Shown: positions 2,419 to 17,143 of the stretch, piece after piece
How positions within the stretch are numbered: the first letter of the stretch is position 1
How the letters are laid out: every line of letters begins with the position of its first letter
Origin: Bacillota bacterium
Lineage (GTDB): Bacteria > Bacillota > Clostridia > Christensenellales > DTU072
Direction of reading: 5' to 3'
DNA length: 33,798 bases
NCBI GenBank assembly: GCA_044426075.1
Contig: JAWXUT010000004.1
Location: 1 to 33,798 of the forward strand
Program-made: the position numbers and the translations under genes
Notes under the pieces: model-generated
Told to the model about the DNA's origin: nothing
Database searches by the model: none
The model's input: only the letters and a program-made list of their open reading frames with translations

Positions 2419-2754
2419 AAAAATTATTTGTGCTGCAACAGAATATAAATTTTTGACAGATTTTATTTTCATACGATTAAATTACAAAGTTTAAATTTTT
2501 ATTTCATAGGTTGGCAAAATTTTATATTCGCCAGTTTGGTATCTAATTCTAGCTATTTTGGTAGCCCGATAAAGAATTTTATGAAAAAGGATAAAATTTG
2601 CATTGCATATTAAATTACATAGCATTTTTGCTATTTACAGTTATATTTATATATTTACACATAAATCTAGCGCATTATTATGAGCAAAAATATCAACCAT
2701 AACACTAAGTTTCACATAAAATTCACAAAATTTTTATAAATTCATAAAAAGCTA

Positions 2755-2783
2755 TTGTGTTTTTTTTAAATTAGATATATAAT
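2755..2783 (+). promoter_or_regulatory. Candidate sigma-70 promoter for the zinc-ribbon/4-TM gene
   Basis: TTGTGT(2755-2760), 17 nt, TATAAT(2778-2783). The region is AT-rich, so chance matches are possible. Confidence 0.35.
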
Positions 2784-2847
2784 AGTAGTATATACTAGTG
2801 TGAAAACTGTTCAGCTAGTGCTTACACCGTTTTCAAGGAGAAATTTT

Positions 2848-3981
2848 ATGGAAAATTGTACAAGTGGTGCACAATTCGAAAATGAAACGCCAGAAGCAGC
2901 AAAATCTATGCTAGCTGAAGCGCAAGCAGCCTTCGACCAAGATGCAAAAGTTAGCGTCGACCGCAACAAGATCACATATGTTTGTGAGCTTTGTGCTTGC
3001 ATCAATTTAATTGATGAACCAAACTGCACCAAGTGCGGCAAACCTCGCCCACGTGCTGAGTTTGTTAATGCATTGCGTTCACTTAGAGATGGTGTTGATG
3101 CAAAAGCTGAGTTAGAAGCTAAGGCGGCAGAAGAGGCAAAACTTGCAGAAGAAGCAAAACTTGCAGAAGAAGCACGACTTGCAGAAGAAGCAGCTAAAGA
3201 AGCAGAGGCTCAAGCTAAAACGGAAGAAGTACAATTCTATCGTTATGAAGGCGCAGCTCCTGTTGTTCAACCACAAGCAGTACATCAACCTTTTGTAATT
3301 GTTCCATATGTTGATACTCATCAAAAATTATATCAATATCAACCAAGGCAAGCATTTCGCTTTGTTCCATACACTCCAGAAGAGTTGGCAGAGCAAGCTG
3401 CTCAACAAGCAGAAATGGATGCTGCAGAGTATTTAGAAATGAAAGCTGCTAACCAACAAGCTAGCAACGCTCAAACAGAAGAGCCTAAATGTTGCGGATT
3501 TAAAAAATCTTTGGTTGCAAGGGCAGTAGGTGCAAAAAATGCGGTTGTTGGCATTGCTACAATAGTATTAATGTTCTTCTTTGCTGTGTTTAGCGCAAAT
3601 GCGGATTCAAAGGGATTAGAAATATTTAAATCATTAGGAAACTGTTTTTCAGCTGCGGGCATTAGCTTAGGTTTTAGTTCAAGTACAGTTGCCTATGTTG
3701 ATTGGACATCTTGGATTGCTCCTATTAGTTATGCACTTATCGCAATTATTTCACTTATAGTTGTTATTGTTGGCGTTAAAAAGCTAATTACTGGCAAAGG
3801 TTGCGGCAAAGGTTGGTTGTTAAATCTATCATCTGTTATCGTAGCACTTGCAATGGGCGCGTTGTTGTACTTCTGTCAAGAGGGCTTTACATTTGCTTCA
3901 TTTGGCATCGGATACTTCATTACTTTAGGCTTGACAGCATTGTCAACACTAATCGCTATCTTTACACCTAGCTGTAAATAA
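2848..3981 (+). CDS. Uncharacterised membrane protein: zinc ribbon + AEEAKL coiled-coil repeat + degenerate S-type Pro/Val/Tyr motif + 4-TM M-type domain
   Basis: The track ORF starts at GTG 2800, but the in-frame ATG 2848 follows AAGGAG (2835-2840) by 7 nt. Zinc ribbon: CELC-x10-CTKC (nt 2983-3036). Coiled-coil repeat: (AEEAKL)n. S-type motif: VVQPQAVHQPFVIVPYVDTHQKLYQYQP and FRFVPYTPEE. Four long hydrophobic helices follow (AVVGIATIVLMFFFAVFSA, WIAPISYALIAIISLIVVIVGV, WLLNLSSVIVALAMGALLYF, FGIGYFITLGLTALSTLIAIF). Confidence 0.8.
   Translation: MENCTSGAQFENETPEAAKSMLAEAQAAFDQDAKVSVDRNKITYVCELCACINLIDEPNCTKCGKPRPRAEFVNALRSLRDGVDAKAELEAKAAEEAKLAEEAKLAEEARLAEEAAKEAEAQAKTEEVQFYRYEGAAPVVQPQAVHQPFVIVPYVDTHQKLYQYQPRQAFRFVPYTPEELAEQAAQQAEMDAAEYLEMKAANQQASNAQTEEPKCCGFKKSLVARAVGAKNAVVGIATIVLMFFFAVFSANADSKGLEIFKSLGNCFSAAGISLGFSSSTVAYVDWTSWIAPISYALIAIISLIVVIVGVKKLITGKGCGKGWLLNLSSVIVALAMGALLYFCQEGFTFASFGIGYFITLGLTALSTLIAIFTPSCK
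3127..3198 (+). repeat. In-frame 18-bp tandem repeat (about 4 units) encoding AEEAKL/AEEARL/AEEAAK
   Basis: gcagaagaggcaaaactt (3127-3144), gcagaagaagcaaaactt (3145-3162), gcagaagaagcacgactt (3163-3180), gcagaagaagcagctaaa (3181-3198). Confidence 0.9.
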
Positions 3982-4002: not shown

Positions 4003-4031
4003 AAAGGATTGCATATGCAGTCCTTTTTTTT
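4003..4031 (+). terminator. Rho-independent terminator after the 2848..3981 gene
   Basis: aaaggattgca / tgcagtccttt stem (one G-U pair) with a short central loop, followed by a T8 run (4024-4031). Confidence 0.75.
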
Positions 4032-4172: not shown

Positions 4173-4424
4173 ATGTCAAAAAAATCAAAGAAAGCAAAGC
4201 AAGAAGCCTTAGAAGCTGAAGAACAAGCAAAGTTAGCAGCAGAAGCTCAAGCTGCCCCAAAATCGCCAAAAATAAGCTTTAGGGTTATGAATAACTGTGG
4301 CGTTGTTCCAGTAGCAAGACCAGCTGACTTTATCCAATTAACACCTATTGTTCAACCTATACCTTTAGTTCCATATAGCACTCAAGAGCAACCAGTGGCT
4401 CAGTTTGAAGACGAAGAAGAATAA
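4173..4424 (+). CDS. Small S-module protein 1 (83 aa): basic N-terminus, EA/Q-rich helix, conserved Pro/Val-rich core, acidic tail
   Basis: GGAGG (4162-4166) lies 6 nt before the ATG. Sequence: MSKKSKKAKQEALEAEEQAKLAAEAQA...SFRVMNNCGVVPVARPADFIQLTPIVQPIPLVPYSTQEQPVAQFEDEEE. The core is almost identical at protein level to the 5380 gene despite many synonymous DNA differences. Confidence 0.88.
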   Translation: MSKKSKKAKQEALEAEEQAKLAAEAQAAPKSPKISFRVMNNCGVVPVARPADFIQLTPIVQPIPLVPYSTQEQPVAQFEDEEE

Positions 4425-4445
4425 GCGTTTGTGGAGGAATAAGTT

Positions 4446-5135
4446 ATGGACAAATATTATATTGTTGACCCTGCAGAGCAAGCAAAGAACAGCACAAACA
4501 TAATTATTGGCAGCGATTCAATTTATTCTACAGCAATGAACGAGGCATATGCAGCAAGATTTGGCCGTCAAGCAATAAAGTATGCTGAGAAACAAGAAGA
4601 AGAGGTTGTGGCTGAACCTGAAATTACACAAGAAGTGGTTGAAGTAAAAGAAGTGGTAGTTGTTCGCAAAAACAAAGTTGCTATCATTATAACTATGTTA
4701 ACCGCATTGCTTACAATTGCGTTAGCCGTTGCAAGTTATCTAAATATTGAGGGACTTGCAACTTACACAGCTTACTATGCTTCAGCGGGCTTACAAAGTG
4801 CTATTGAAGTGTTTAGTTCGGGGGCAAGTATAACAGTAATATTGATTTATGCACTACTACTAGCATCAATTTTGTTTGCATTACTTACTTTTATTAGAGG
4901 CATCATTTTGTTGGCTTCCAAGAAGAAGAAAAAGTGCGCACTACTATTGCCACTATTGTTTTTAGTGATGATAATCGCAAGTGTAGCTATGTTCGTAATA
5001 GAGTATATGGCTACAACAGATATTATGCTACTCATTAATCCTTTTGAGGCAGATGCAATAGGAATAGCAGCTTATGCCACAATAGCATTTGCGTTAATTG
5101 CATTTATATCATCTTTATTCTCATACAAAAAATAA
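4446..5135 (+). CDS. M-module 4-TM membrane protein (229 aa), partner of S1
   Basis: GGAGGA RBS; 21 nt after the S1 stop. Soluble acidic N-terminus, then TM1 (VAIIITMLTALLTIALAVASYL), TM2, the basic loop SKKKKKC, TM3, TM4, and a basic C-terminus (YKK). Confidence 0.8.
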   Translation: MDKYYIVDPAEQAKNSTNIIIGSDSIYSTAMNEAYAARFGRQAIKYAEKQEEEVVAEPEITQEVVEVKEVVVVRKNKVAIIITMLTALLTIALAVASYLNIEGLATYTAYYASAGLQSAIEVFSSGASITVILIYALLLASILFALLTFIRGIILLASKKKKKCALLLPLLFLVMIIASVAMFVIEYMATTDIMLLINPFEADAIGIAAYATIAFALIAFISSLFSYKK

Positions 5136-5142
5136 TCAAATC

Positions 5143-5172
5143 AAACTGGCTTCCAACGAGGTCAGTTTTTTT
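5143..5172 (+). terminator. Rho-independent terminator after the first S-M pair
   Basis: 8-bp stem aaactggc / gtcagttt (one G-U pair), 10-nt loop, T-run to 5172. Confidence 0.6.
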
Positions 5173-5299
5173 ATGTGCAAAATTTGCGTTATGCAGTCAA
5201 CACTCTCTAGTAAAATAAAAGCAAACAGCAAGTTTGTTTGTTTTGTGAACGAGTTGTGATTAATTATGCTAAAAAATTAAAAAAAATATTGTTTTTATA

Positions 5300-5328
5300 T
5301 TGTAAATCATTAATATATATGTTACTAT
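5300..5328 (+). promoter_or_regulatory. Candidate extended -10 promoter for the second S-M pair
   Basis: TTGTAA(5300-5305), 17 nt, TGtTACTAT(5320-5328). Confidence 0.4.
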
Positions 5329-5379
5329 ATAAGTGCATAAAATAAAATCGCAATTTCCGCGATATATATGGAGGATATA

Positions 5380-5640
5380 ATGTCAAGAAAAAAGAGAAAA
5401 GCAGAAGAAGCAAGACTTGCAGCGGAAGCTCAAGCACAGCAAGAAGCGCAAGCTCAACAAGAGGTACAAGCATACAGAATGCCAAAAACCAGTTTTCGCG
5501 TTATGAATAACTGTGGAGTTGTTCCAGTTGCTAGACCTGCGGATTTTATACAATTGACACCAGTTGTACAACCTATTCCACTTGTTCCATACAGCACTCA
5601 AATGCAGCCTCTAGCTCAATTTGAAGAAGAAGAATATTAA
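5380..5640 (+). CDS. Small S-module protein 2 (86 aa)
   Basis: The track ORF starts at ATG 5368, but that ATG overlaps the GGAGG (5370-5374). ATG 5380 is correctly spaced and gives MSRKKRKAEE..., parallel to MSKKSKKAKQ of S1. C-terminus: SFRVMNNCGVVPVARPADFIQLTPVVQPIPLVPYSTQMQPLAQFEEEEY. Confidence 0.88.
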   Translation: MSRKKRKAEEARLAAEAQAQQEAQAQQEVQAYRMPKTSFRVMNNCGVVPVARPADFIQLTPVVQPIPLVPYSTQMQPLAQFEEEEY

Positions 5641-5742
5641 AAACATATTCATAAGATAATAAAATAGAGATGACTTTTAAGTTCAGTTTTAAACACTAAA
5701 ATAATGTGTTGTAGCTGAAGTGATTTTATAATGGAGGCAAAT

Positions 5743-6600
5743 ATGTATAATATTCAAAATGAACATTATAACTATGATGTAAGTGAAAAGGGTAAGGCAA
5801 CGCCTTATTTTAAAGCATATCTATCTGCTACAAACGAAAGGCCTTTTTATGAGGAACCGGTTGTGCCAGTAGTTGTAGATAACAGAAAAGAGCCTAAGCG
5901 CACATTTTTTGTATTAATGGTGGCGATATTGTCATTGTTAATAGTTGCAGTAGTGGGCTTGAGTTTTATGGGCATAATGCCAGAATACACCGCTTTATTC
6001 GGCCAACAAACAGACGAAATTGTTGGTGAAGAGTATGACGAGCCTGCTGATGAAATAGTTGCAGAAGCAGCTACAGCAGAAGACGTAACAGATGGCTCAG
6101 AAACGGATACAGAAACCGAAGAAGAGAGCGTTGAATATGTGTATGCAAAAATAAGTGCCGATGATATAATAAACAGCACGCTAAAAATGTTGGGCATTAT
6201 TGAAACAGAAGAAGAATTGGTATTTTATTCAGAGTGTTTAGCCAATATCGAATTGGTTGAGACCACAGCGCTTATCGCTTACTATGCATTGCCAGCAGCA
6301 ATTGCTTTAACTGCAATTATAGCGCTTTATATCTTTATCAAATCAATATTTGCTTTGTTTAGCGCAAAGAGACGTAAATTCAGCTATATTTCATTATTGT
6401 TACTATTGGTGAGTTTGCTAGGTATTGTTGCGGGCTTGGTTTGGAATGCAGAACCATTGTCAAGCGTACTATCATTCTTTATGATGTCGGGAACAAATTT
6501 AGTACTTGGATTGGGTTATATAATCGTTATTGTACTAGAAATTTTGCTACTAATATGCTCAATGTTCGCCTATCGTAGCAAGAAGAAGGCAAAATATTAG
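5743..6600 (+). CDS. M-module 4-TM membrane protein (285 aa) with an acidic ecto-loop
   Basis: ATG 5743 follows GGAGG (5733-5737); the track start 5731 overlaps the RBS. TM1 is FFVLMVAILSLLIVAVVGLSFMGIMPEYTALFG, followed by a D/E/T-rich segment, then three more TM helices with the basic loop SAKRRK and the C-terminus RSKKKAKY. Clear paralog of the 6940 gene. Confidence 0.8.
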   Translation: MYNIQNEHYNYDVSEKGKATPYFKAYLSATNERPFYEEPVVPVVVDNRKEPKRTFFVLMVAILSLLIVAVVGLSFMGIMPEYTALFGQQTDEIVGEEYDEPADEIVAEAATAEDVTDGSETDTETEEESVEYVYAKISADDIINSTLKMLGIIETEEELVFYSECLANIELVETTALIAYYALPAAIALTAIIALYIFIKSIFALFSAKRRKFSYISLLLLLVSLLGIVAGLVWNAEPLSSVLSFFMMSGTNLVLGLGYIIVIVLEILLLICSMFAYRSKKKAKY

Positions 6601-6624
6601 TAAAACTTTTAGCGCAAATAGGGT

Positions 6625-6652
6625 GGTGGATTAATTTCCACTTACTCTTTTT
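6625..6652 (+). terminator. Weak candidate terminator after the second S-M pair
   Basis: ggtgga / tccact 6-bp stem (one G-U pair), loop ttaatt. The T-run (6648-6652) sits 5 nt from the stem, which is suboptimal. Confidence 0.3.
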
Positions 6653-6707
6653 GGTGTCTATATGGTAAAAATTGATAATAATTTTTGAACAAATTAGTAA
6701 ATAGCTC

Positions 6708-6736
6708 TTGTAATTTTTTGCGTAGTATGTTAAACT
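6708..6736 (+). promoter_or_regulatory. Candidate extended -10 promoter for the five-gene unit 6940..10525
   Basis: TTGTAA(6708-6713), 17 nt, TGtTAAACT(6728-6736). This would give a 5' UTR of ~200 nt. Confidence 0.35.
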
Positions 6737-6939
6737 ATATAATATTATATTATAAGACGCGGGGAGAAAGCGCACGCAGTGCAATTTCGGTTAGTTAGTG
6801 TAATATATCGGTGTTATTGCTAGTTCGGCTAGCTAAATGCAAAGCATTTGTAGATTTAGTAACTTGTTAGTAAGTCAGTAACACGCAGAATGTACAAGTA
6901 AAAGTTATATTTTAATAATTACAAGTTGAGGGAGAGTCA

Positions 6940-8097
6940 ATGGCAAACCAACCATCTAAAGTTAATAATAAAGTAGCGGCTTCGCCATATTACGCAAATT
7001 ATATGGCAAATAAGGGTAATGCAAACCAAAGTAGCGCCGGAAGACCTATGCAAAGGGTTCCTATGAGCACTCCTTACTATGGTGCAGCACCTATGATGGC
7101 GCCTCAACAAACCGTTAGGCCTGCCGCTAAATCAGCAGCAAAGTCAACCGTTAAACCAATGCCACAATATACAGAAAAGCAAGCTAAAAAAATCGAAAGA
7201 CAAAGAAAAAGACAAAGTTCACACTTCTTTGTAATGCGTAAAGGCGTTTGCTTCTTGATGTTTATTTGTTCATTGTTGGTTGTAGCGATGTTGGCATTGA
7301 GCTTTTTAGAAATTATGCCAAGTTTCACATCAATATACGCTATTCCAGATAACACACCACTTGATGAACGTGTTGCTGCTGATAGTTTAGAAGACGATTT
7401 AGATATCTCTAACGCTGCTAGTGATGAAGTTGCAGAAGATGACGCGCTTACAGAAGATGAGTTGTTGAGCGATGTTTATGTTGACGCTACTGAATACGTA
7501 GGTGTTGCAGATTTAATATACGGACTTGCAAACGGAATGTTTGCGTTAGGTTTGGTTGATGAAGAGGGTGTTAGCCTTTCAATCGCCTACGACGAGACAT
7601 TGGCAAGTATCCAAGCAGTTGCGCTAGAATATCCAGAAGATAGTATGGCTTCAATTGCAGCTATGATGTATGAATATATGCCACTTGCAATCGCAGTGCT
7701 TGCAGTTGTTGCAATTATTAGTTTGATAATGAGCTTTTTCGCTTTGTTTGGCAGACGAATATTTAAGGGATTTGGTTTGATGGGAATTATAATGACATTG
7801 TGTTCGGTTGTAGTTTTCATTGCGGGTCTTGCAACGCTAGGGCTTATGAACGGCAATCCAGTTTTCGCAGAAGACGGTACAATAACAAGTTTACTTGATT
7901 TCAGCCAACTAAGCGGATTCTTAACCAGAATAATATCAAGTGCACCAGCAACCGCACTAGATCCATTAGTAGATATAATGCCAGTTGTGTACTGCGCGGG
8001 TATCGGAATGTTAGCTATATTAGTAGCACCAATATTACAAATCGTGCTATCAATATTTGCAAGGCGCAAATTACCTTACAGTATTTTTGATAAGTAA
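6940..8097 (+). CDS. M-module 4-TM membrane protein (385 aa) with a P/Y/Q/A-rich N-terminal region and an acidic ecto-loop
   Basis: GAGGGAG RBS. The TM1 region FFVMRKGVCFLMFICSLLVVAMLALSFLEIMPSFTSIYA aligns with the 5743 protein. The TM2 region EYMPLAIAVLAVVAIISLIMSFFALFGRRIFK aligns with YALPAAIALTAIIALYIFIKSIFALFSAKRRK. Confidence 0.8.
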   Translation: MANQPSKVNNKVAASPYYANYMANKGNANQSSAGRPMQRVPMSTPYYGAAPMMAPQQTVRPAAKSAAKSTVKPMPQYTEKQAKKIERQRKRQSSHFFVMRKGVCFLMFICSLLVVAMLALSFLEIMPSFTSIYAIPDNTPLDERVAADSLEDDLDISNAASDEVAEDDALTEDELLSDVYVDATEYVGVADLIYGLANGMFALGLVDEEGVSLSIAYDETLASIQAVALEYPEDSMASIAAMMYEYMPLAIAVLAVVAIISLIMSFFALFGRRIFKGFGLMGIIMTLCSVVVFIAGLATLGLMNGNPVFAEDGTITSLLDFSQLSGFLTRIISSAPATALDPLVDIMPVVYCAGIGMLAILVAPILQIVLSIFARRKLPYSIFDK

Positions 8098-8114
8098 ACA
8101 TTAGGAGGGATAAT

Positions 8115-8384
8115 ATGTTTAATAGTAAACGTAAAAAAATAGAGAAACAAATGGCAATTGAAGCCGAAATGCAAGCTCGTATTAATAATGAAGCTGCACT
8201 TGTTGAGGCAAATTCACCTAAACAACCTCGTGCTTCTGTAAGATTAATGCATAACTGTGGTCCAGTGCCAATAGCACCTCCTTCAGATTTCATTCAACTT
8301 ACACCAATTGTACAACCTATCCCACTTGTTCCATATAGCACTCAAAGCCAACCACTTGTGATGTTTGACGAGTTCGAAGATTAA
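8115..8384 (+). CDS. Small S-module protein 3 (89 aa)
   Basis: AGGAGGG RBS; 17 nt after the upstream stop. Sequence: MFNSKRKKIEKQMAIEAEMQAR...SVRLMHNCGPVPIAPPSDFIQLTPIVQPIPLVPYSTQSQPLVMFDEFED. Confidence 0.88.
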   Translation: MFNSKRKKIEKQMAIEAEMQARINNEAALVEANSPKQPRASVRLMHNCGPVPIAPPSDFIQLTPIVQPIPLVPYSTQSQPLVMFDEFED

Positions 8385-8410
8385 TTGATCTTTGGGAGGA
8401 AATAGACATA

Positions 8411-9139
8411 ATGCAAAAAGCACAGTCAATAAATTCCTATATGGCAGACTCAAATAGTGATGTTGTTCAAGTTTCTAAAGGCGGTGGCGTACCAGTTTCA
8501 CCTATTGCGGTTACACAATACGTTACTCCTATTGTTTCTGTTGGTGCAATGGCACCATATCATCTCAAAGGGCAACCCGCTTTAGTTGAGCCAAACTACT
8601 TTGATGAAATGGCAGAAGATGCTGTTTCAACAGAAGAAGTCGTTGCTGTTGAATGTAGTGATAAAATTCGCAAAAGAGGATGTAGTTTTTCTTCTTTACT
8701 TGCAATCATATTGGCAATTGCTACTGTGTTTGCGCTAGTAGCGGGTAAATACATAAATAGCATTGCAGAGTATTGTGCTATTGCTGATGGTTCAATAGGA
8801 TATACTTATATTGAATCATTAATAAACAACATTACCAGCGGTGTTGTATTGAGCGCAGAAAATATTATTCCACTTTGCGTGGCATTAATAGCAGTGTGCA
8901 GCATATTGACAATTATCGCTTGTGTTATTAAATTAGGCTATAAAGGGGTTTGTATATTTGCAAAAATTACCATACTTCTTACGCTAGCAAGTTGTGGCGT
9001 TGCGTTAGGTTACGCAATTGGTACAGGGATTGCTGTTGATATTTGCCTATATGTTATATGTGGTATTACTTTTATACAAAGCGTTGTTGCGTTATGTGTA
9101 AAAAGATATAAAAATTGTAAAAAAGAAATTAAAGCTTAG
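8411..9139 (+). CDS. Fusion protein: degenerate S motif + M-module 4-TM domain (242 aa)
   Basis: GGGAGGA RBS. The N-terminus GGGVPVSPIAVTQYVTPIVSVGAMAPYHLKGQPALVEPNYFDE resembles the S core. It is followed by RKRGCSF-TM1 and three further TM helices, with the basic C-terminus KRYKNCKKEIKA. Confidence 0.8.
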   Translation: MQKAQSINSYMADSNSDVVQVSKGGGVPVSPIAVTQYVTPIVSVGAMAPYHLKGQPALVEPNYFDEMAEDAVSTEEVVAVECSDKIRKRGCSFSSLLAIILAIATVFALVAGKYINSIAEYCAIADGSIGYTYIESLINNITSGVVLSAENIIPLCVALIAVCSILTIIACVIKLGYKGVCIFAKITILLTLASCGVALGYAIGTGIAVDICLYVICGITFIQSVVALCVKRYKNCKKEIKA

Positions 9140-9170
9140 TTTAAACTGAAGAGGGATTAAGGAGAGCCGT

Positions 9171-9560
9171 ATGAATAGAAAAAAATCAAAAAAATGTTGC
9201 CAACCTGCAGTTGCTGAAACTTGTGCTCCAGTACAAGAACAACGCAGACCAGCGGTTGCTGTTGCAACAAATATGCCTTTTGCGCAACAATCACAACAAG
9301 CAGCATATATGCCAAACGCAAGTCAATTTGCAGTTATGGGCAACGCAATGCCTATGGGATTAGCTCAATACAATTCTGTTGATGAGTATGGCCGAGTTTA
9401 TAGTCCAATAATGAGTTATGGCCCACAACCAAACAGCGCACCAGTGCCAGTTGCAATTCCATCACAAATTGTACAATTGACACCAATAGTAGCCCCTGTT
9501 TCATTTGTACCATATGCAACACAAAACCAAGGCTTGTATCAATTTGAAGAAGAGATTTAA
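9171..9560 (+). CDS. Small S-module protein 4 (129 aa), longer Q/M/A/P-rich middle
   Basis: AAGGAGAG RBS. N-terminus: MNRKKSKKCC. C-terminus: APVPVAIPSQIVQLTPIVAPVSFVPYATQNQGLYQFEEEI. Confidence 0.85.
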   Translation: MNRKKSKKCCQPAVAETCAPVQEQRRPAVAVATNMPFAQQSQQAAYMPNASQFAVMGNAMPMGLAQYNSVDEYGRVYSPIMSYGPQPNSAPVPVAIPSQIVQLTPIVAPVSFVPYATQNQGLYQFEEEI

Positions 9561-9577: not shown

Positions 9578-10525
9578 ATGGAAAACAATACTAACAACAT
9601 CGGTCTACAATCAAATCAAGGCGCACAGCAATCACAAGGTAAGTGGGTAGCTGTTGATGCCAATACTGTAGGCAATATTCCTACCGATATCGCAGCCAAT
9701 CAACCTTTTCAAGGTGCTGATGGCGCTATGTACTGTATGGGTGAACCACAACAAGCACTTGCTCAAATTAACAGCAATGTTACGCAAAACGCAGTGCCAG
9801 TTCCTTCCTCAATAGTGCAAATGCCACCTATCGTGCAACCTATTGCATTGGTGCCATTTACATCACAAAATCAACCATTATTGCAATATGATCCATATTC
9901 AAGGCCAGTAGAACCTCAAGTTCAACCAGCTCAACCAGAATATAAACTAAATCCTTACAAAGGCAACAGCCTTGCTGCTATGCTTTTAGGAATTGTATCA
10001 TTGGTGCTAGTACTATTCTTGTCAATGGCGAACTTTGCAGAAACAGCTTCTGTTGCAGCATATAGCTCTAACGGATTAGATATGATATTTGCAGTGCTTG
10101 CATATTTCGGTCTTGGTGTTTCAAGTTCATACTACACTGGCAATATTGAACCAAACCTAGATTCAATGTCTTCTGACATAATGAGTGCAATTATTGTTTT
10201 TGCTGTACCAGTTTGCATAATTGTTATAGCGTTAATAACATTAATTCTTGTTATCAAGAACCTAGTTAAATTAGCAAAAGGTGTTTCACCAAAATGCTTC
10301 AGCATAGGTGCACTAGTTAATATAATATTGATTGTTGCTGTACTTGGATTCTTGCTAGGTATGAACAATGCAGCTGAGGGCGAAATGAATATCGCTGGAT
10401 TCTTTAGCAGAAGTTCTAGCATTTACTGGGGAATTGGTCTTGCTGTAGCATTAGTATTAAATATAGTACATATTATAATAGTAGCTCTTCCAAAGAAAAA
10501 CAATTATATTGAAATCAACAAATAA
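9578..10525 (+). CDS. Fusion protein: S motif + M-module 4-TM domain (315 aa)
   Basis: AGGGAGAAG RBS. The N-terminal half contains AVPVPSSIVQMPPIVQPIALVPFTSQNQPLLQYDPY. Then come TM1 (LAAMLLGIVSLVLVLFLSMANF), TM2, the loop KLAKGVSPKC, TM3, TM4 and the C-terminus PKKNNYIEINK. Confidence 0.82.
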   Translation: MENNTNNIGLQSNQGAQQSQGKWVAVDANTVGNIPTDIAANQPFQGADGAMYCMGEPQQALAQINSNVTQNAVPVPSSIVQMPPIVQPIALVPFTSQNQPLLQYDPYSRPVEPQVQPAQPEYKLNPYKGNSLAAMLLGIVSLVLVLFLSMANFAETASVAAYSSNGLDMIFAVLAYFGLGVSSSYYTGNIEPNLDSMSSDIMSAIIVFAVPVCIIVIALITLILVIKNLVKLAKGVSPKCFSIGALVNIILIVAVLGFLLGMNNAAEGEMNIAGFFSRSSSIYWGIGLAVALVLNIVHIIIVALPKKNNYIEINK

Positions 10526-10606: not shown

Positions 10607-10840
10607 ATGATAGAAGAAAAAGTTAAATTAGCAATTGCAGACCAATTGGGAATAGAGGCGTCAGATATCAAGCTAGAAGATGAATTGATTGCAGATTTAA
10701 ATGCAGATTCATTGGATATTGTACAATTATTGATGGAAATTGAAGTGGAATATGGCATCGAATTTGATGATAATTCTGATAGTGTTAAAAACATAAAAAC
10801 AGTACAAGACGTAGTAAATTTCATCAGTTCAAAAAACTAA
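10607..10840 (+). CDS. acpP: Acyl carrier protein (77 aa), not next to fab/pls genes
   Basis: AAGGAG (10595-10600) lies 6 nt before ATG 10607; the track start 10562 is inside the terminator hairpin. DLNADSLDIVQLLMEIEVEYGIEF matches the AcpP phosphopantetheine-attachment region (DSLD). Confidence 0.8.
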   Translation: MIEEKVKLAIADQLGIEASDIKLEDELIADLNADSLDIVQLLMEIEVEYGIEFDDNSDSVKNIKTVQDVVNFISSKN

Positions 10841-11172: not shown

Positions 11173-11523
11173 ATGGCAAAAAACAACAAATTGACACTTC
11201 AAGTTAGCGATGCTGACGGAATACAACAAACTCAAGTTGAGAAGAAAGCACAAGATGCTCCTAAAAAGCAAAAACCATCAAAAGGTGGCAAAAAGCAATC
11301 TCAACAAAAGTTAAATTTCTTCCAACGCATAGCTAAATCTTTTAGAGAGATAGTATCTGAGTTAAAGAAAGTTGATTGGCCACCAATGAAAAAGAGCAAA
11401 AACAATCCTGGCGTTTTACCAAACACCAGTACAGTTTTAGTAGTTGTATTGTTCTTTATGGTTTTAATAACAGCTTTTGACGCAGGCTTAGCAGCATTGC
11501 TAAAGCTACTAACTACAGTTTAG
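11173..11523 (+). CDS. secE: Preprotein translocase subunit SecE with a ~55-aa Lys/Gln-rich N-terminal extension
   Basis: FFQRIAKSFREIVSELKKVDWP followed by a single TM helix (VLVVVLFFMVLITAF); located between rpmG and nusG. Confidence 0.8.
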   Translation: MAKNNKLTLQVSDADGIQQTQVEKKAQDAPKKQKPSKGGKKQSQQKLNFFQRIAKSFREIVSELKKVDWPPMKKSKNNPGVLPNTSTVLVVVLFFMVLITAFDAGLAALLKLLTTV

Positions 11524-15529: not shown

Positions 15530-16624
15530 TTATAAAATAGTTATAAGCGCGTGGCACGATATTGTGTTGGGCGCTGTTTTTTCGGTTGTTTTTGCAGATA
15601 TTGAGATGTTTGTTTGCGATATGTTTAATAGGGTGGATAAGTTGTTTCGCATAGCTTCAATGTGTGGTTGAAGTTTTGGATTATCTGCTATTATTATTAA
15701 ATTTACAGTTTGTATGCGTCTGTTGTGATTTGCAAAAATGCACAGTGCTTTTTCTAATAATATGGTGCTGGCTATGCCTTTAAATTGGGGGTCAGTGTCG
15801 CTAAAATGCGTGCCAATGTCACGCTCACCTATTGCGGAGAATAGCGCGTCAATTAATGCGTGCAAACAGAGGTCGCCGTCAGAATGGGCAACAATGCCAA
15901 GTGGCGAATCTATCTCTATTCCGCACAAAACTAGCTTGTTTCCTTCTGATAGACGGTGTAAATCGTATCCGCTGCCAATTTTAATTTGCGTGCCAACATA
16001 GTCGGCGGGGGTGGTTAGTTTGCGATTTTCGGGGTCGCCCTCAACTATGTGTGCGGGTTTTATAAATGTAGAATAGAGTTGACTTTCATCTGTAAAACTG
16101 GCGTTGCCTTTTAACGCGAATGCTCTTTTTATTTCTGCCGTGTTAAAGGCTTGAGGGGTGCTCACTGTGCATAACTTTTCGCGGGGGAAACCACTAACTA
16201 TGCATCCATTTTCACACTCGCATACACTATCTGTAACCGCCAATGCGGGAATTGCACTGCCGTATTTTTCAGCTGAATTGGCTAGCATTGCAATGTGATT
16301 TGGACGCACAAAGGGGCGCGCTCCGTCGTGAATTAACACTATAGGTGCGGTAACTTCCGCTAGTCCGTTTTGTACAGAAGCAGTGCGATTTTCTCCACCT
16401 TTTACAAATACTATTTCGTCAATATCCGACAACAAACTGCGTGCAGCTGCAATATCTTGTTCTTTTAACACCACAATTATGCGCGCAATACCTAGAACTC
16501 CGCAAAACGCTTGCACGCTACGGCGCAACACACTTTCTGTGCCAAGTGGCAAAAAAACCTTGTTTTCACCCATTCTAACACCATTGCCACCGCCTACGAT
16601 GACTGCATCAAATACCCTACGCAT
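15530..16624 (-). CDS. ispDF: Bifunctional IspD/IspF: 2-C-methyl-D-erythritol 4-phosphate cytidylyltransferase / MEcPP synthase
   Basis: The N-terminal half has AVIVGGGNGVRMG (IspD nucleotide-binding loop). The C-terminal half has IGSGYDLHRL...GIVAHSDGDLCLHALIDALFSAIGERDIGTHF (IspF zinc and substrate motifs). It is a single 364-aa ORF. Confidence 0.88.
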   Translation of the reverse strand: MRRVFDAVIVGGGNGVRMGENKVFLPLGTESVLRRSVQAFCGVLGIARIIVVLKEQDIAAARSLLSDIDEIVFVKGGENRTASVQNGLAEVTAPIVLIHDGARPFVRPNHIAMLANSAEKYGSAIPALAVTDSVCECENGCIVSGFPREKLCTVSTPQAFNTAEIKRAFALKGNASFTDESQLYSTFIKPAHIVEGDPENRKLTTPADYVGTQIKIGSGYDLHRLSEGNKLVLCGIEIDSPLGIVAHSDGDLCLHALIDALFSAIGERDIGTHFSDTDPQFKGIASTILLEKALCIFANHNRRIQTVNLIIIADNPKLQPHIEAMRNNLSTLLNISQTNISISAKTTEKTAPNTISCHALITIL

Positions 16625-16868
16625 CTATGATTGACTCGTACAAATCTTGTGCATCTGACTTAGATACATTGCCAACGGGCACCTTTGTAACCTTAAAAAA
16701 TACATCTTTATCGCCAAATCTGATGCCAATTACATCACCAACTTTTACTTCTTTGCTGGGTTTTGACTGCTTGCCATTTATGGTTATTCGGTCTGCGTCG
16801 CAGGCTTCGTTTGCCACTGTTCTGCGCTTTATTATGCGTGAAACTTTTAAATACTTATCTAATCTCAT
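16617..16868 (-). CDS. rqcP: S4-domain RNA-binding protein, YabO/RqcP family (ribosome quality control)
   Basis: MRLDKYLKVSRIIKRRTVANEACDADRITINGKQSKPSKEVKVGDVIGIRFG closely parallels B. subtilis YabO as I recall it (MRLDKFLKVSRLIKRRTLAKE...). Its end overlaps the ispDF start by 8 nt (ATGCGTAG). Confidence 0.8.
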   Translation of the reverse strand: MRLDKYLKVSRIIKRRTVANEACDADRITINGKQSKPSKEVKVGDVIGIRFGDKDVFFKVTKVPVGNVSKSDAQDLYESIIDA

Positions 16869-16888
16869 CTATATTTACCTCACTAAAA

Positions 16889-16917
16889 ATTATACCATAT
16901 AGCGCGAAAAAATTCAA
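16889..16917 (-). promoter_or_regulatory. Promoter of rqcP-ispDF (minus strand)
   Basis: Minus strand reads TTGAAT, 17 nt, TGgTATAAT, then GTGAGG RBS and the ATG. Confidence 0.6.
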
Positions 16918-17143
16918 GAGCATAATGCGGTTTGTGTGGTTAATTTGCAAAGAAACACCGCGCTAGCAACTATCCTCGGTAATTTAAAAGTAAAACTTTT
17001 AAAATATTTACATAAAAATATGAAAATTTCATTGGTGAATAATGGCAAAAACTGGTGGATTTTGCGGTGTTTTTTGTCGGAATTATAAGGCGAAAACTGG
17101 TAAAAAAATATTTATATATATATTATATATTAATAATAATCGC

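Follow-up and report, generated by a model that had tools for sequence, protein, structure and literature searches.

The 33,798-nucleotide window analysed here (the whole stretch of contig JAWXUT010000004.1, assembly GCA_044426075.1, from a Bacillota bacterium of the Christensenellales) encodes four small proteins, S1 to S4, among the genes of a set of membrane proteins, F0 and M1 to M5, predicted to cross the membrane four times (tetraspan proteins). The small proteins are members of a real and previously undescribed family, found only in uncultured Christensenellales-type gut Clostridia, and their conserved part is also present in relatives, where it makes up the N-terminal arm, on the cytoplasmic side, of a tetraspan membrane protein. 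The reading that we favour, and put forward tentatively, is that the S proteins display the conserved linear motif of this arm for a partner shared by all the membrane paralogues. The genes of the small proteins are the following:

S1: 4173-4424, + strand; open reading frame (ORF) of 83 amino acids (aa), hidden Markov model (HMM) E-value 4e-27; basic N-terminus, A/E/Q helix, motif and acidic end
S2: 5380-5640, + strand; ORF of 86 aa, HMM E 1e-27
S3: 8115-8384, + strand; ORF of 89 aa, HMM E 2e-26
S4: 9171-9560, + strand; ORF of 129 aa, HMM E 4e-24; Q/M/A/P-rich spacer instead of the helix

The ORF listing bears out that the four genes are real and lie on the + strand, at the coordinates given in a preliminary description of this DNA. 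For S2 the likely start is the ATG at 5380, with GGAGG 5 nucleotides (nt) upstream; the alternative ATG at 5368 overlaps this ribosome-binding site. The four proteins have the same layout, consisting of a basic N-terminus, a helical or low-complexity spacer, a near-invariant motif of ~35-45 residues rich in proline, glutamine and hydrophobic residues, and an acidic end. The alignment confirmed the basic N-terminal patches of S1-S4 and the NCG of S1-S3 that had been described before, as well as the tails FEDEEE, FEEEEY, FDEFED and FEEEI. The claim of a core common to all four proteins also holds, but the regular expression originally written for it, taken literally, matches none of them, given one surplus 'x' after the 'A' and the presence of QLTPVV in S2; once mended, [VP]P[VI]Ax[PS]xx[FI][IV]QLTP[IV]V[QA]P[IV]x[LF]VPY[SA]TQxQ matches all four. 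The motif of S4 is a QNQ variant that is also present in M5.

Every 19-residue window of S1-S4 stays below a Kyte-Doolittle value of 1.6, so that these proteins have no transmembrane (TM) segment or signal-peptide core, as had been anticipated. In an AlphaFold2 model of S3 built with 116 homologues, residues 2-32 form a helix with a predicted local distance difference test (pLDDT) score of 74-79, in agreement with the earlier designation of the A/E/Q stretch as helix-like, and the conserved motif is coil, with a pLDDT of ~60. No autonomous globular fold was predicted, and according to this model S is a soluble, largely disordered protein. Codon adaptation, calculated with the ribosomal-protein genes and EF-G of this window as the reference set, is 0.61-0.65 for the S genes, like that of NusG, SecE and the acyl carrier protein (ACP), and lower (0.54-0.61) for the M genes.

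A profile of the four S proteins retrieved 390 homologues at E<=1e-3, all of them annotated as 'hypothetical', 70-130 aa long, without Pfam domains and from metagenome-assembled genomes (MAGs) of Clostridia/Christensenellales. Among the 116 homologues aligned, the columns Q-L-T-P, V, P, P, Q and Q of the motif are invariant and ~18 further columns are at least 90% conserved, the consensus being RPSVSFRVMNNC[AG]PVPVA[KR]PADFIQLTPIVQPIPIVPYSTQxQPLAQFD[DE][ED]; the spacer and the extreme C-terminus are variable. The motif is thus a conserved, predicted unstructured island amid variable sequence, as is expected of a short linear motif in a disordered region. Lack of conservation in other genomes, or an autonomous globular fold with a known function, had been named beforehand as the results that would speak against an adaptor role; the motif proved to be strongly conserved elsewhere, and no such fold was found. 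When the 34-codon core of S1 and S2 is compared, 15 codons are identical, 16 differ synonymously and 3 non-synonymously. The large excess of synonymous differences points to purifying selection, and a repeat at the DNA level or gene conversion was rejected on these grounds as the source of the likeness between S proteins.

The family is narrow, since an exhaustive HMM search of 1.84 billion representative proteins returned only 147 clusters; a scan of 185,579 species-representative genomes found 67 loci. The loci come nearly all from MAGs of uncultured Clostridia, of Christensenellaceae/Christensenellales or of Candidatus Stercoripulliclostridium, and many record names indicate an animal-gut origin (chicken, sheep, goat, roe deer). 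Searches of ten proteins of the locus, the 116 S homologues and 118 M5 homologues against Pfam-A 2025, NCBIfam 20.0 and PADLOC gave nothing at or above threshold, the S profile had no match among all PDB sequences even at E<=10, and an Rfam scan of the whole window returned no matches. A full-text literature search with the motif strings found no paper, and a general one on small proteins and Christensenellales yielded nothing relevant. The novelty lies in the lack of a match to any described family or system; a new mechanism is not demonstrated thereby.

As judged from gene order and fusions, the coupling of the S genes to those of the membrane proteins is well supported. The latter, with the hairpins that separate them, are listed here:

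F0: 2848-3981, + strand; cytoplasmic Zn ribbon CELC...CTKC, AEEAKL-type helical repeat, two degenerate motifs, 4 TM
M1: 4446-5135, + strand; 229 aa, 4 TM, both ends predicted cytoplasmic (N-in/C-in), without the S motif; starts 21 nt past S1
M2: 5731-6600, + strand; 289 aa, 4-TM paralogue; N-terminal block TPYFKAY, extracytoplasmic loop acidic
M3: 6940-8097, + strand; 385 aa, 4-TM paralogue; N-terminal block SPYYANY, conserved C-terminal tail ...KLPYSIFDK
M4: 8411-9139, + strand; 242 aa, 4-TM paralogue with a degenerate N-terminal motif, VPVSPIAVTQYVTPIVSVGAMAPY
M5: 9578-10525, + strand; 315 aa, natural fusion of an N-terminal element (residues 21-55), S motif, Pro-rich linker and 4 TM
Hairpin after F0: 4003-4026, + strand; terminator-like, with a T run; separates F0 from the S1-M1 unit
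Hairpin after M1: 5143-5168, + strand; terminator-like, with a T run

In the window S1 is paired with M1, S2 with M2, S3 with M4 and S4 with M5, M3 being alone. The S1-M1 unit is bounded by the two terminator-like hairpins, a weaker 6-bp hairpin follows M2, and the genes from M3 through S3, M4 and S4 to M5 are separated by only 17-32 nt. The 72 loci that were fetched contain 299 motif-bearing ORFs. About 85% of the free S ORFs (146 of ~171 after removal of redundancy) have an ORF with three or more TM helices within the next 300 nt, and most of those without a following membrane gene are at contig ends. In a further ~105 ORFs of the fetched loci the motif is found N-terminal to at least three TM helices, and the exhaustive HMM search also returned proteins that run from a full S (MSKK..., spacer, motif and acidic run) through a basic stretch into a 4-TM domain; examples of such full fusions are P0139, P0147, P0154, P0156, P0157, P0160-P0164, P0171 and P0206. 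The two parts are therefore fused in some genomes and adjacent in others, the pattern known as a Rosetta stone. Read-through or frameshifting was considered as a means of joining the free proteins to their neighbours and rejected: S1 and M1 share a frame but are separated by two stop codons and a ribosome-binding site, and for S3/M4 and S4/M5 the frames differ.

The same gene order (F0, M2-like, S, M3-like, S, M4-like, S4-like, M5-like, ACP, rpmG, secE, nusG) is found in ~70 loci, and the succession of an S4-like and an M5-like gene recurs in most of them, the S1-M1 pair being the least widespread unit of the array. Across these loci the M proteins are only 25-55% identical. A kept gene order together with such divergence indicates that the paralogues are old, each with its own orthologues, and that the array did not arise by recent duplication in place. 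The preliminary description had proposed an adaptor that is linked to the M proteins; this is sustained in outline by adjacency and fusions, and the present evidence does not support its two specific elements, a C-terminal docking tail and the docking of the motif as a strand on M.

F0 and M1-M5 are weakly but detectably homologous (M2-M3, E 1e-22; M1-M2, 7e-8; M4-M5, 1e-8; F0-M5, 1e-5). Basic residues are found ahead of TM1, in the segment that joins TM2 to TM3 and at the C-terminal end, from which an N-in/C-in topology is deduced according to the positive-inside rule; hydropathy and the helices of the AlphaFold2 model of M5 agree with four TM segments in the M proteins. In M5 the arm is made in cis, which the preliminary description had not noticed: it contains the S motif, VPSSIVQMPPIVQPIALVPFTSQNQPLLQYD, at nt ~9794-9892 (residues ~75-105; HMM E 1e-10), and the motif columns are invariant in 118 homologues. 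The N-terminal motif of M4 is not significant in the window (E 0.5) but is usually intact in the M4-like genes of syntenic loci, with E-values of 1e-12 to 1e-20. In F0 two degenerate copies, QPFVIVPY and QAFRFVPY, follow the Zn ribbon and the AEEAKL repeat, and a DNA repeat family, D4, is present at 3286-3308 and 3349-3371; the ribbon lies on the same predicted, cytoplasmic side as the motif arms. The start of F0 was inferred from the orthologue P0373, which begins MENCTSG, and the listed GTG at 2800 is probably too far upstream. The homology search with F0 gave only two matches, low-complexity AEEAKL words having filled the candidate list. F0 orthologues match PF13240/PF12773, and the copy in the window has no Pfam match. 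The first Zn ribbon of F0 has decayed in the window (2848-2920), where MENCTSGAQFENE corresponds to MEKCTSCGAVYTEAEMFCSQCG of the orthologue P0374 and three of the four cysteines are gone; the second, CELC...CTKC, retains the CxxC...CxxC pattern.

An AlphaFold2 model of M5 built with 118 homologues has a mean pLDDT of 83, exceeding 90 over residues 120-310, and includes short predicted extracytoplasmic beta-strands. The S motif of M5 itself is left undocked, with a pLDDT below 50, so that packing of the motif against the membrane domain in cis is not predicted. Residues 21-55 of M5 (window 9578-9745) constitute a separate element, G.W[VI].VD...GPDG..YC.G, which is nearly invariant in the 118 homologues and is predicted to form a beta-hairpin (pLDDT 83-87) flanked by disorder; it may be this element, in fact, that packs against the membrane domain. 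M3 and its orthologues (loci L001-L072) lack the N-terminal motif, and their C-terminus is a strongly conserved [KR]K[VI]PYSIFD[KR] (window ~8068-8094). This tail resembles a compressed S motif (VPYS...FD) and could be an alternative means of displaying that recognition element. A different N-terminal block, [ST]PY[YF]xx[YF] (for example RDMSSPYYKSY or KATPYFKAY), is frequent in membrane paralogues without the S motif: the strict pattern is present in 57 of 195 ORFs lacking the motif, a denominator that takes in some unrelated membrane ORFs, and in none of the 105 motif-bearing ones. Regions of this type are found in the window at the N-termini of M1, M2 and M3 (e.g. 5731-5850 and 6940-7010).

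With respect to the acidic/aromatic tail, the beginning of it (F/Y-D/E-D/E-E) belongs to the conserved motif in the 116 S homologues, and beyond that point both the length and the last residue vary, Y being the commonest and E, D, F and I also occurring. In the fusions this run is not terminal: it continues as a linker of 20-100 residues from the motif to TM1, with a basic stretch before TM1. The earlier proposal of a docking peptide comparable to the tails of SSB or EEVD-type proteins is therefore not supported, since such a peptide would be a conserved sequence at a free C-terminus, and the tail of free S is best understood as a stub of this linker. An electrostatic contact between the acidic tail of S and basic loops of M may nevertheless exist.

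These data can be accommodated if S1-S4 are regarded as detached versions of the arm that a lineage-specific tetraspan family, comprising F0 and M1-M5, has at its cytoplasmic N-terminus. The arm would consist of a basic N-terminus, a helical or low-complexity spacer and the disordered motif ...PVPVA[KR]PADFIQLTPIVQPIxxVPYSTQxQPLAQ[FY][DE], followed by the acidic run; it would be made in cis in M5, in the M4 orthologues and in many full S-M fusions, and elsewhere be supplied in trans by the small gene just upstream in the same operon. The invariant motif would serve for interaction, as a short linear motif kept at the cytoplasmic surface of the membrane, where it could bind one partner common to all the paralogues, a conserved cytoplasmic or membrane protein, and the variable parts of S, or simply co-translation and electrostatics, would keep each S with its own M. 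From sequences and models we infer the association of S with M in trans, the shared partner and any downstream function. Between paralogues the motif is ~60-90% identical, in comparison with 20-27% for the M partners, which expose very little cytoplasmic surface, and a near-identical motif across such divergent M proteins fits a shared partner better than paralogue-specific binding to M. The failure of AlphaFold2 to dock the motif on M and the compressed look-alike at the end of the M3 family also argue for a linear motif recognized by a common partner.

Several observations weigh against this proposal. M4- and M5-type proteins carry their own motif and yet have an S gene upstream, so the replacement of a missing arm by S cannot be the whole story. 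The failed docking in cis is a weak argument, and the motif could still bind M in trans or in an oligomer. Within a single clade, genes can stay side by side through conserved synteny even when they are not functionally coupled, although the existence of S-M fusions argues against synteny as the only cause.

The preliminary description had leaned towards docking on M itself, with the motif and/or the acidic tail placing S on the cytoplasmic face of its cognate M by beta-strand augmentation, so that S would be an M-bound regulatory or adaptor subunit. The adjacency and occasional fusion of S and M are as expected in that case; the M5 model has a two-stranded cytoplasmic sheet, formed by the N-terminal juxtamembrane segment (E122-124) and the C-terminal tail (E310-312), that another strand could extend, and M has basic loops and tails on the cytoplasmic side (KKKKK, KKKAKY), complementary to the acidic run of S. 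We nevertheless consider docking on M rather unlikely: the poorly predicted cis motif stands beside a membrane domain of high confidence, which is a weak negative result, a motif that hardly changes would have to fit very small surfaces on divergent M proteins, and the acidic run is internal in fusions, with terminal residues that vary. The motifs might instead bind one another in a beta-rich cytoplasmic hub that clusters the tetraspan proteins into a single hetero-oligomeric membrane complex. Motif-bearing genes are many at each locus (six to eight copies of the motif, in free S, M4, M5 and F0) and similar in number across loci, the motif is made up of four short hydrophobic segments split by prolines and would be unfolded as a monomer, and both the window and locus L001 have a private variant in S4 and M5 (IVQ..., QNQ, L.Q[FY]); this last feature can be explained by common descent alone, and M1-M3 lack the motif. 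Self-assembly of the motifs is in our opinion improbable. The same estimate applies to the larger picture of a multi-subunit membrane assembly of this uncultured Christensenellales lineage, in which five to six claudin/LetA-like tetraspans would display six to eight motif copies, in cis and on detachable S subunits, and would thereby form or attract a cytoplasmic hub; we would not expect this picture to be correct.

The arrangement of a small gene ahead of a multi-TM gene, in short operons with terminator-like hairpins on either side, also brings to mind an exported or toxic peptide with M as its immunity protein or antidote, as in class II bacteriocins or toxin-antitoxin-like pairs, or the precursor of a ribosomally synthesized and post-translationally modified peptide (RiPP). 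Such a role is very hard to reconcile with the data and we regard it as extremely improbable. S has no signal peptide, double-glycine leader or hydrophobic segment, and there is no exporter in the locus, as would be expected for a bacteriocin; the invariant part is the C-terminal half and not a leader, and the locus has no conserved transporter, protease or maturase, a radical-SAM gene having been seen in two overlapping loci only (L001 and L002). Covalent S-M fusions are common, the array occupies a fixed housekeeping position beside rpmG-secE-nusG across the clade, and PADLOC gave no match.

Some features of the neighbouring genes deserve mention. A stand-alone ACP-like gene (10607-10840; PF00550, E 4e-10) lies between M5 and rpmG and keeps this place in 43 of 72 loci; it may be either the housekeeping acpP or a gene linked to the array. 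The SecE homologue (11173-11523) has a K/Q-rich N-terminal extension of ~60 residues before its single TM helix. Upstream of F0 is a gene for an MFS_2 sugar-type transporter (934-2418), and a tRNA-synt_1c gene, found directly before F0 in loci L001, L003, L005 and L039, is absent there in the window (2419-2847). On the minus strand, a 153-aa ORF at 332-793 covers only the first ~108 of 249 positions of a xylose-isomerase-like TIM-barrel family, with 28.9 bits against a cut-off of 31.1; its relative in L001 has 290 aa, and the ORF is perhaps truncated or a pseudogene. A bifunctional IspD/IspF (YgbB) gene (15530-16624, minus strand), located just after the gene for L9 (14924-15427), is the only large minus-strand gene in the ribosomal-protein/rpoBC region and coincides with a local dip in GC skew at 16001-17000.

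Most of the Christensenellales, gut bacteria that are heritable and associated with health, are uncultured, and in this lineage a block of ~10 genes without any annotation adjoins core transcription and translation operons. Within it, one disordered motif of ~40 residues has been kept almost letter for letter in six or seven proteins per genome, and across genomes whose other proteins have diverged to 25-50% identity. Such strong constraint on an unstructured peptide implies an important binding partner, and this partner, once found, would give a function to the whole locus. The array is also a clean natural case of a cytoplasmic arm of a membrane protein that exists both fused and as a separate small protein, which makes it useful for the study of partnerships between small proteins and membrane proteins.

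Comparison with known systems reveals partial likenesses. The tails of SSB, at its C-terminus, and the EEVD tails of Hsp70 and Hsp90 need a free carboxy-terminus with conserved final residues; S is similar in that its disordered region has, at the end or close to it, an acidic stretch with an aromatic residue, but the last residues of S are not constant, and about 100 fused relatives have the acidic run in the interior of the chain. Among small multi-pass membrane proteins of the DUF996/Yip1 type, which to our knowledge are uncharacterised in bacteria, DUF996 appears below threshold in 11 of the 118 M5 homologues (best E 1.7e-5) and Yip1 in three, with M5 of the window reaching 12.7 bits against a cut-off of 31.3; these proteins lack an S-like arm. 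When the M5 model was compared with the PDB using Foldseek there was no match at E<=1e-3; the best had an E-value of 0.054, with TM-scores not above 0.5. The weak matches (E 0.05-0.8) are almost all LetA, claudins, TARPs and MP20, headed by LetA (9n8w_A). Neither Foldseek nor the Pfam gathering thresholds place M significantly among claudins, TARPs or LetA, and the lack of a PqiA or claudin family match follows from the lack of any Pfam match at threshold.

Claudin, TARP and PMP22 tetraspans have disordered cytoplasmic tails with short linear motifs, such as PDZ-binding ends. They resemble the M proteins in having four TM helices, both ends in the cytoplasm, short extracytoplasmic beta-strands (predicted in M5) and a disordered arm with a linear motif, which constitutes a functional analogy only; here, however, the motif is at the N-terminus, spans ~40 residues and bears no relation to PDZ ligands, the arm is partly encoded by a separate gene, and the hosts are bacterial and monoderm. 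LetA joins a tetraspanin-superfamily membrane domain with cytoplasmic Zn ribbons (PMC13017536). F0 is like LetA/PqiA in combining such ribbons with a membrane domain (of 4 TM in F0), although this is a single TM domain and not a pseudodimer, the locus encodes no MCE/LetB partner, and LetA has nothing like the S motif. The LetA-like layout of F0 and the weak, non-significant likeness of the M5 model to LetA are only a lead. Taken together with the fixed position beside an ACP gene, the weak likeness to the LetA fold would hint that the proposed membrane assembly, if it exists, takes part in envelope or lipid handling.

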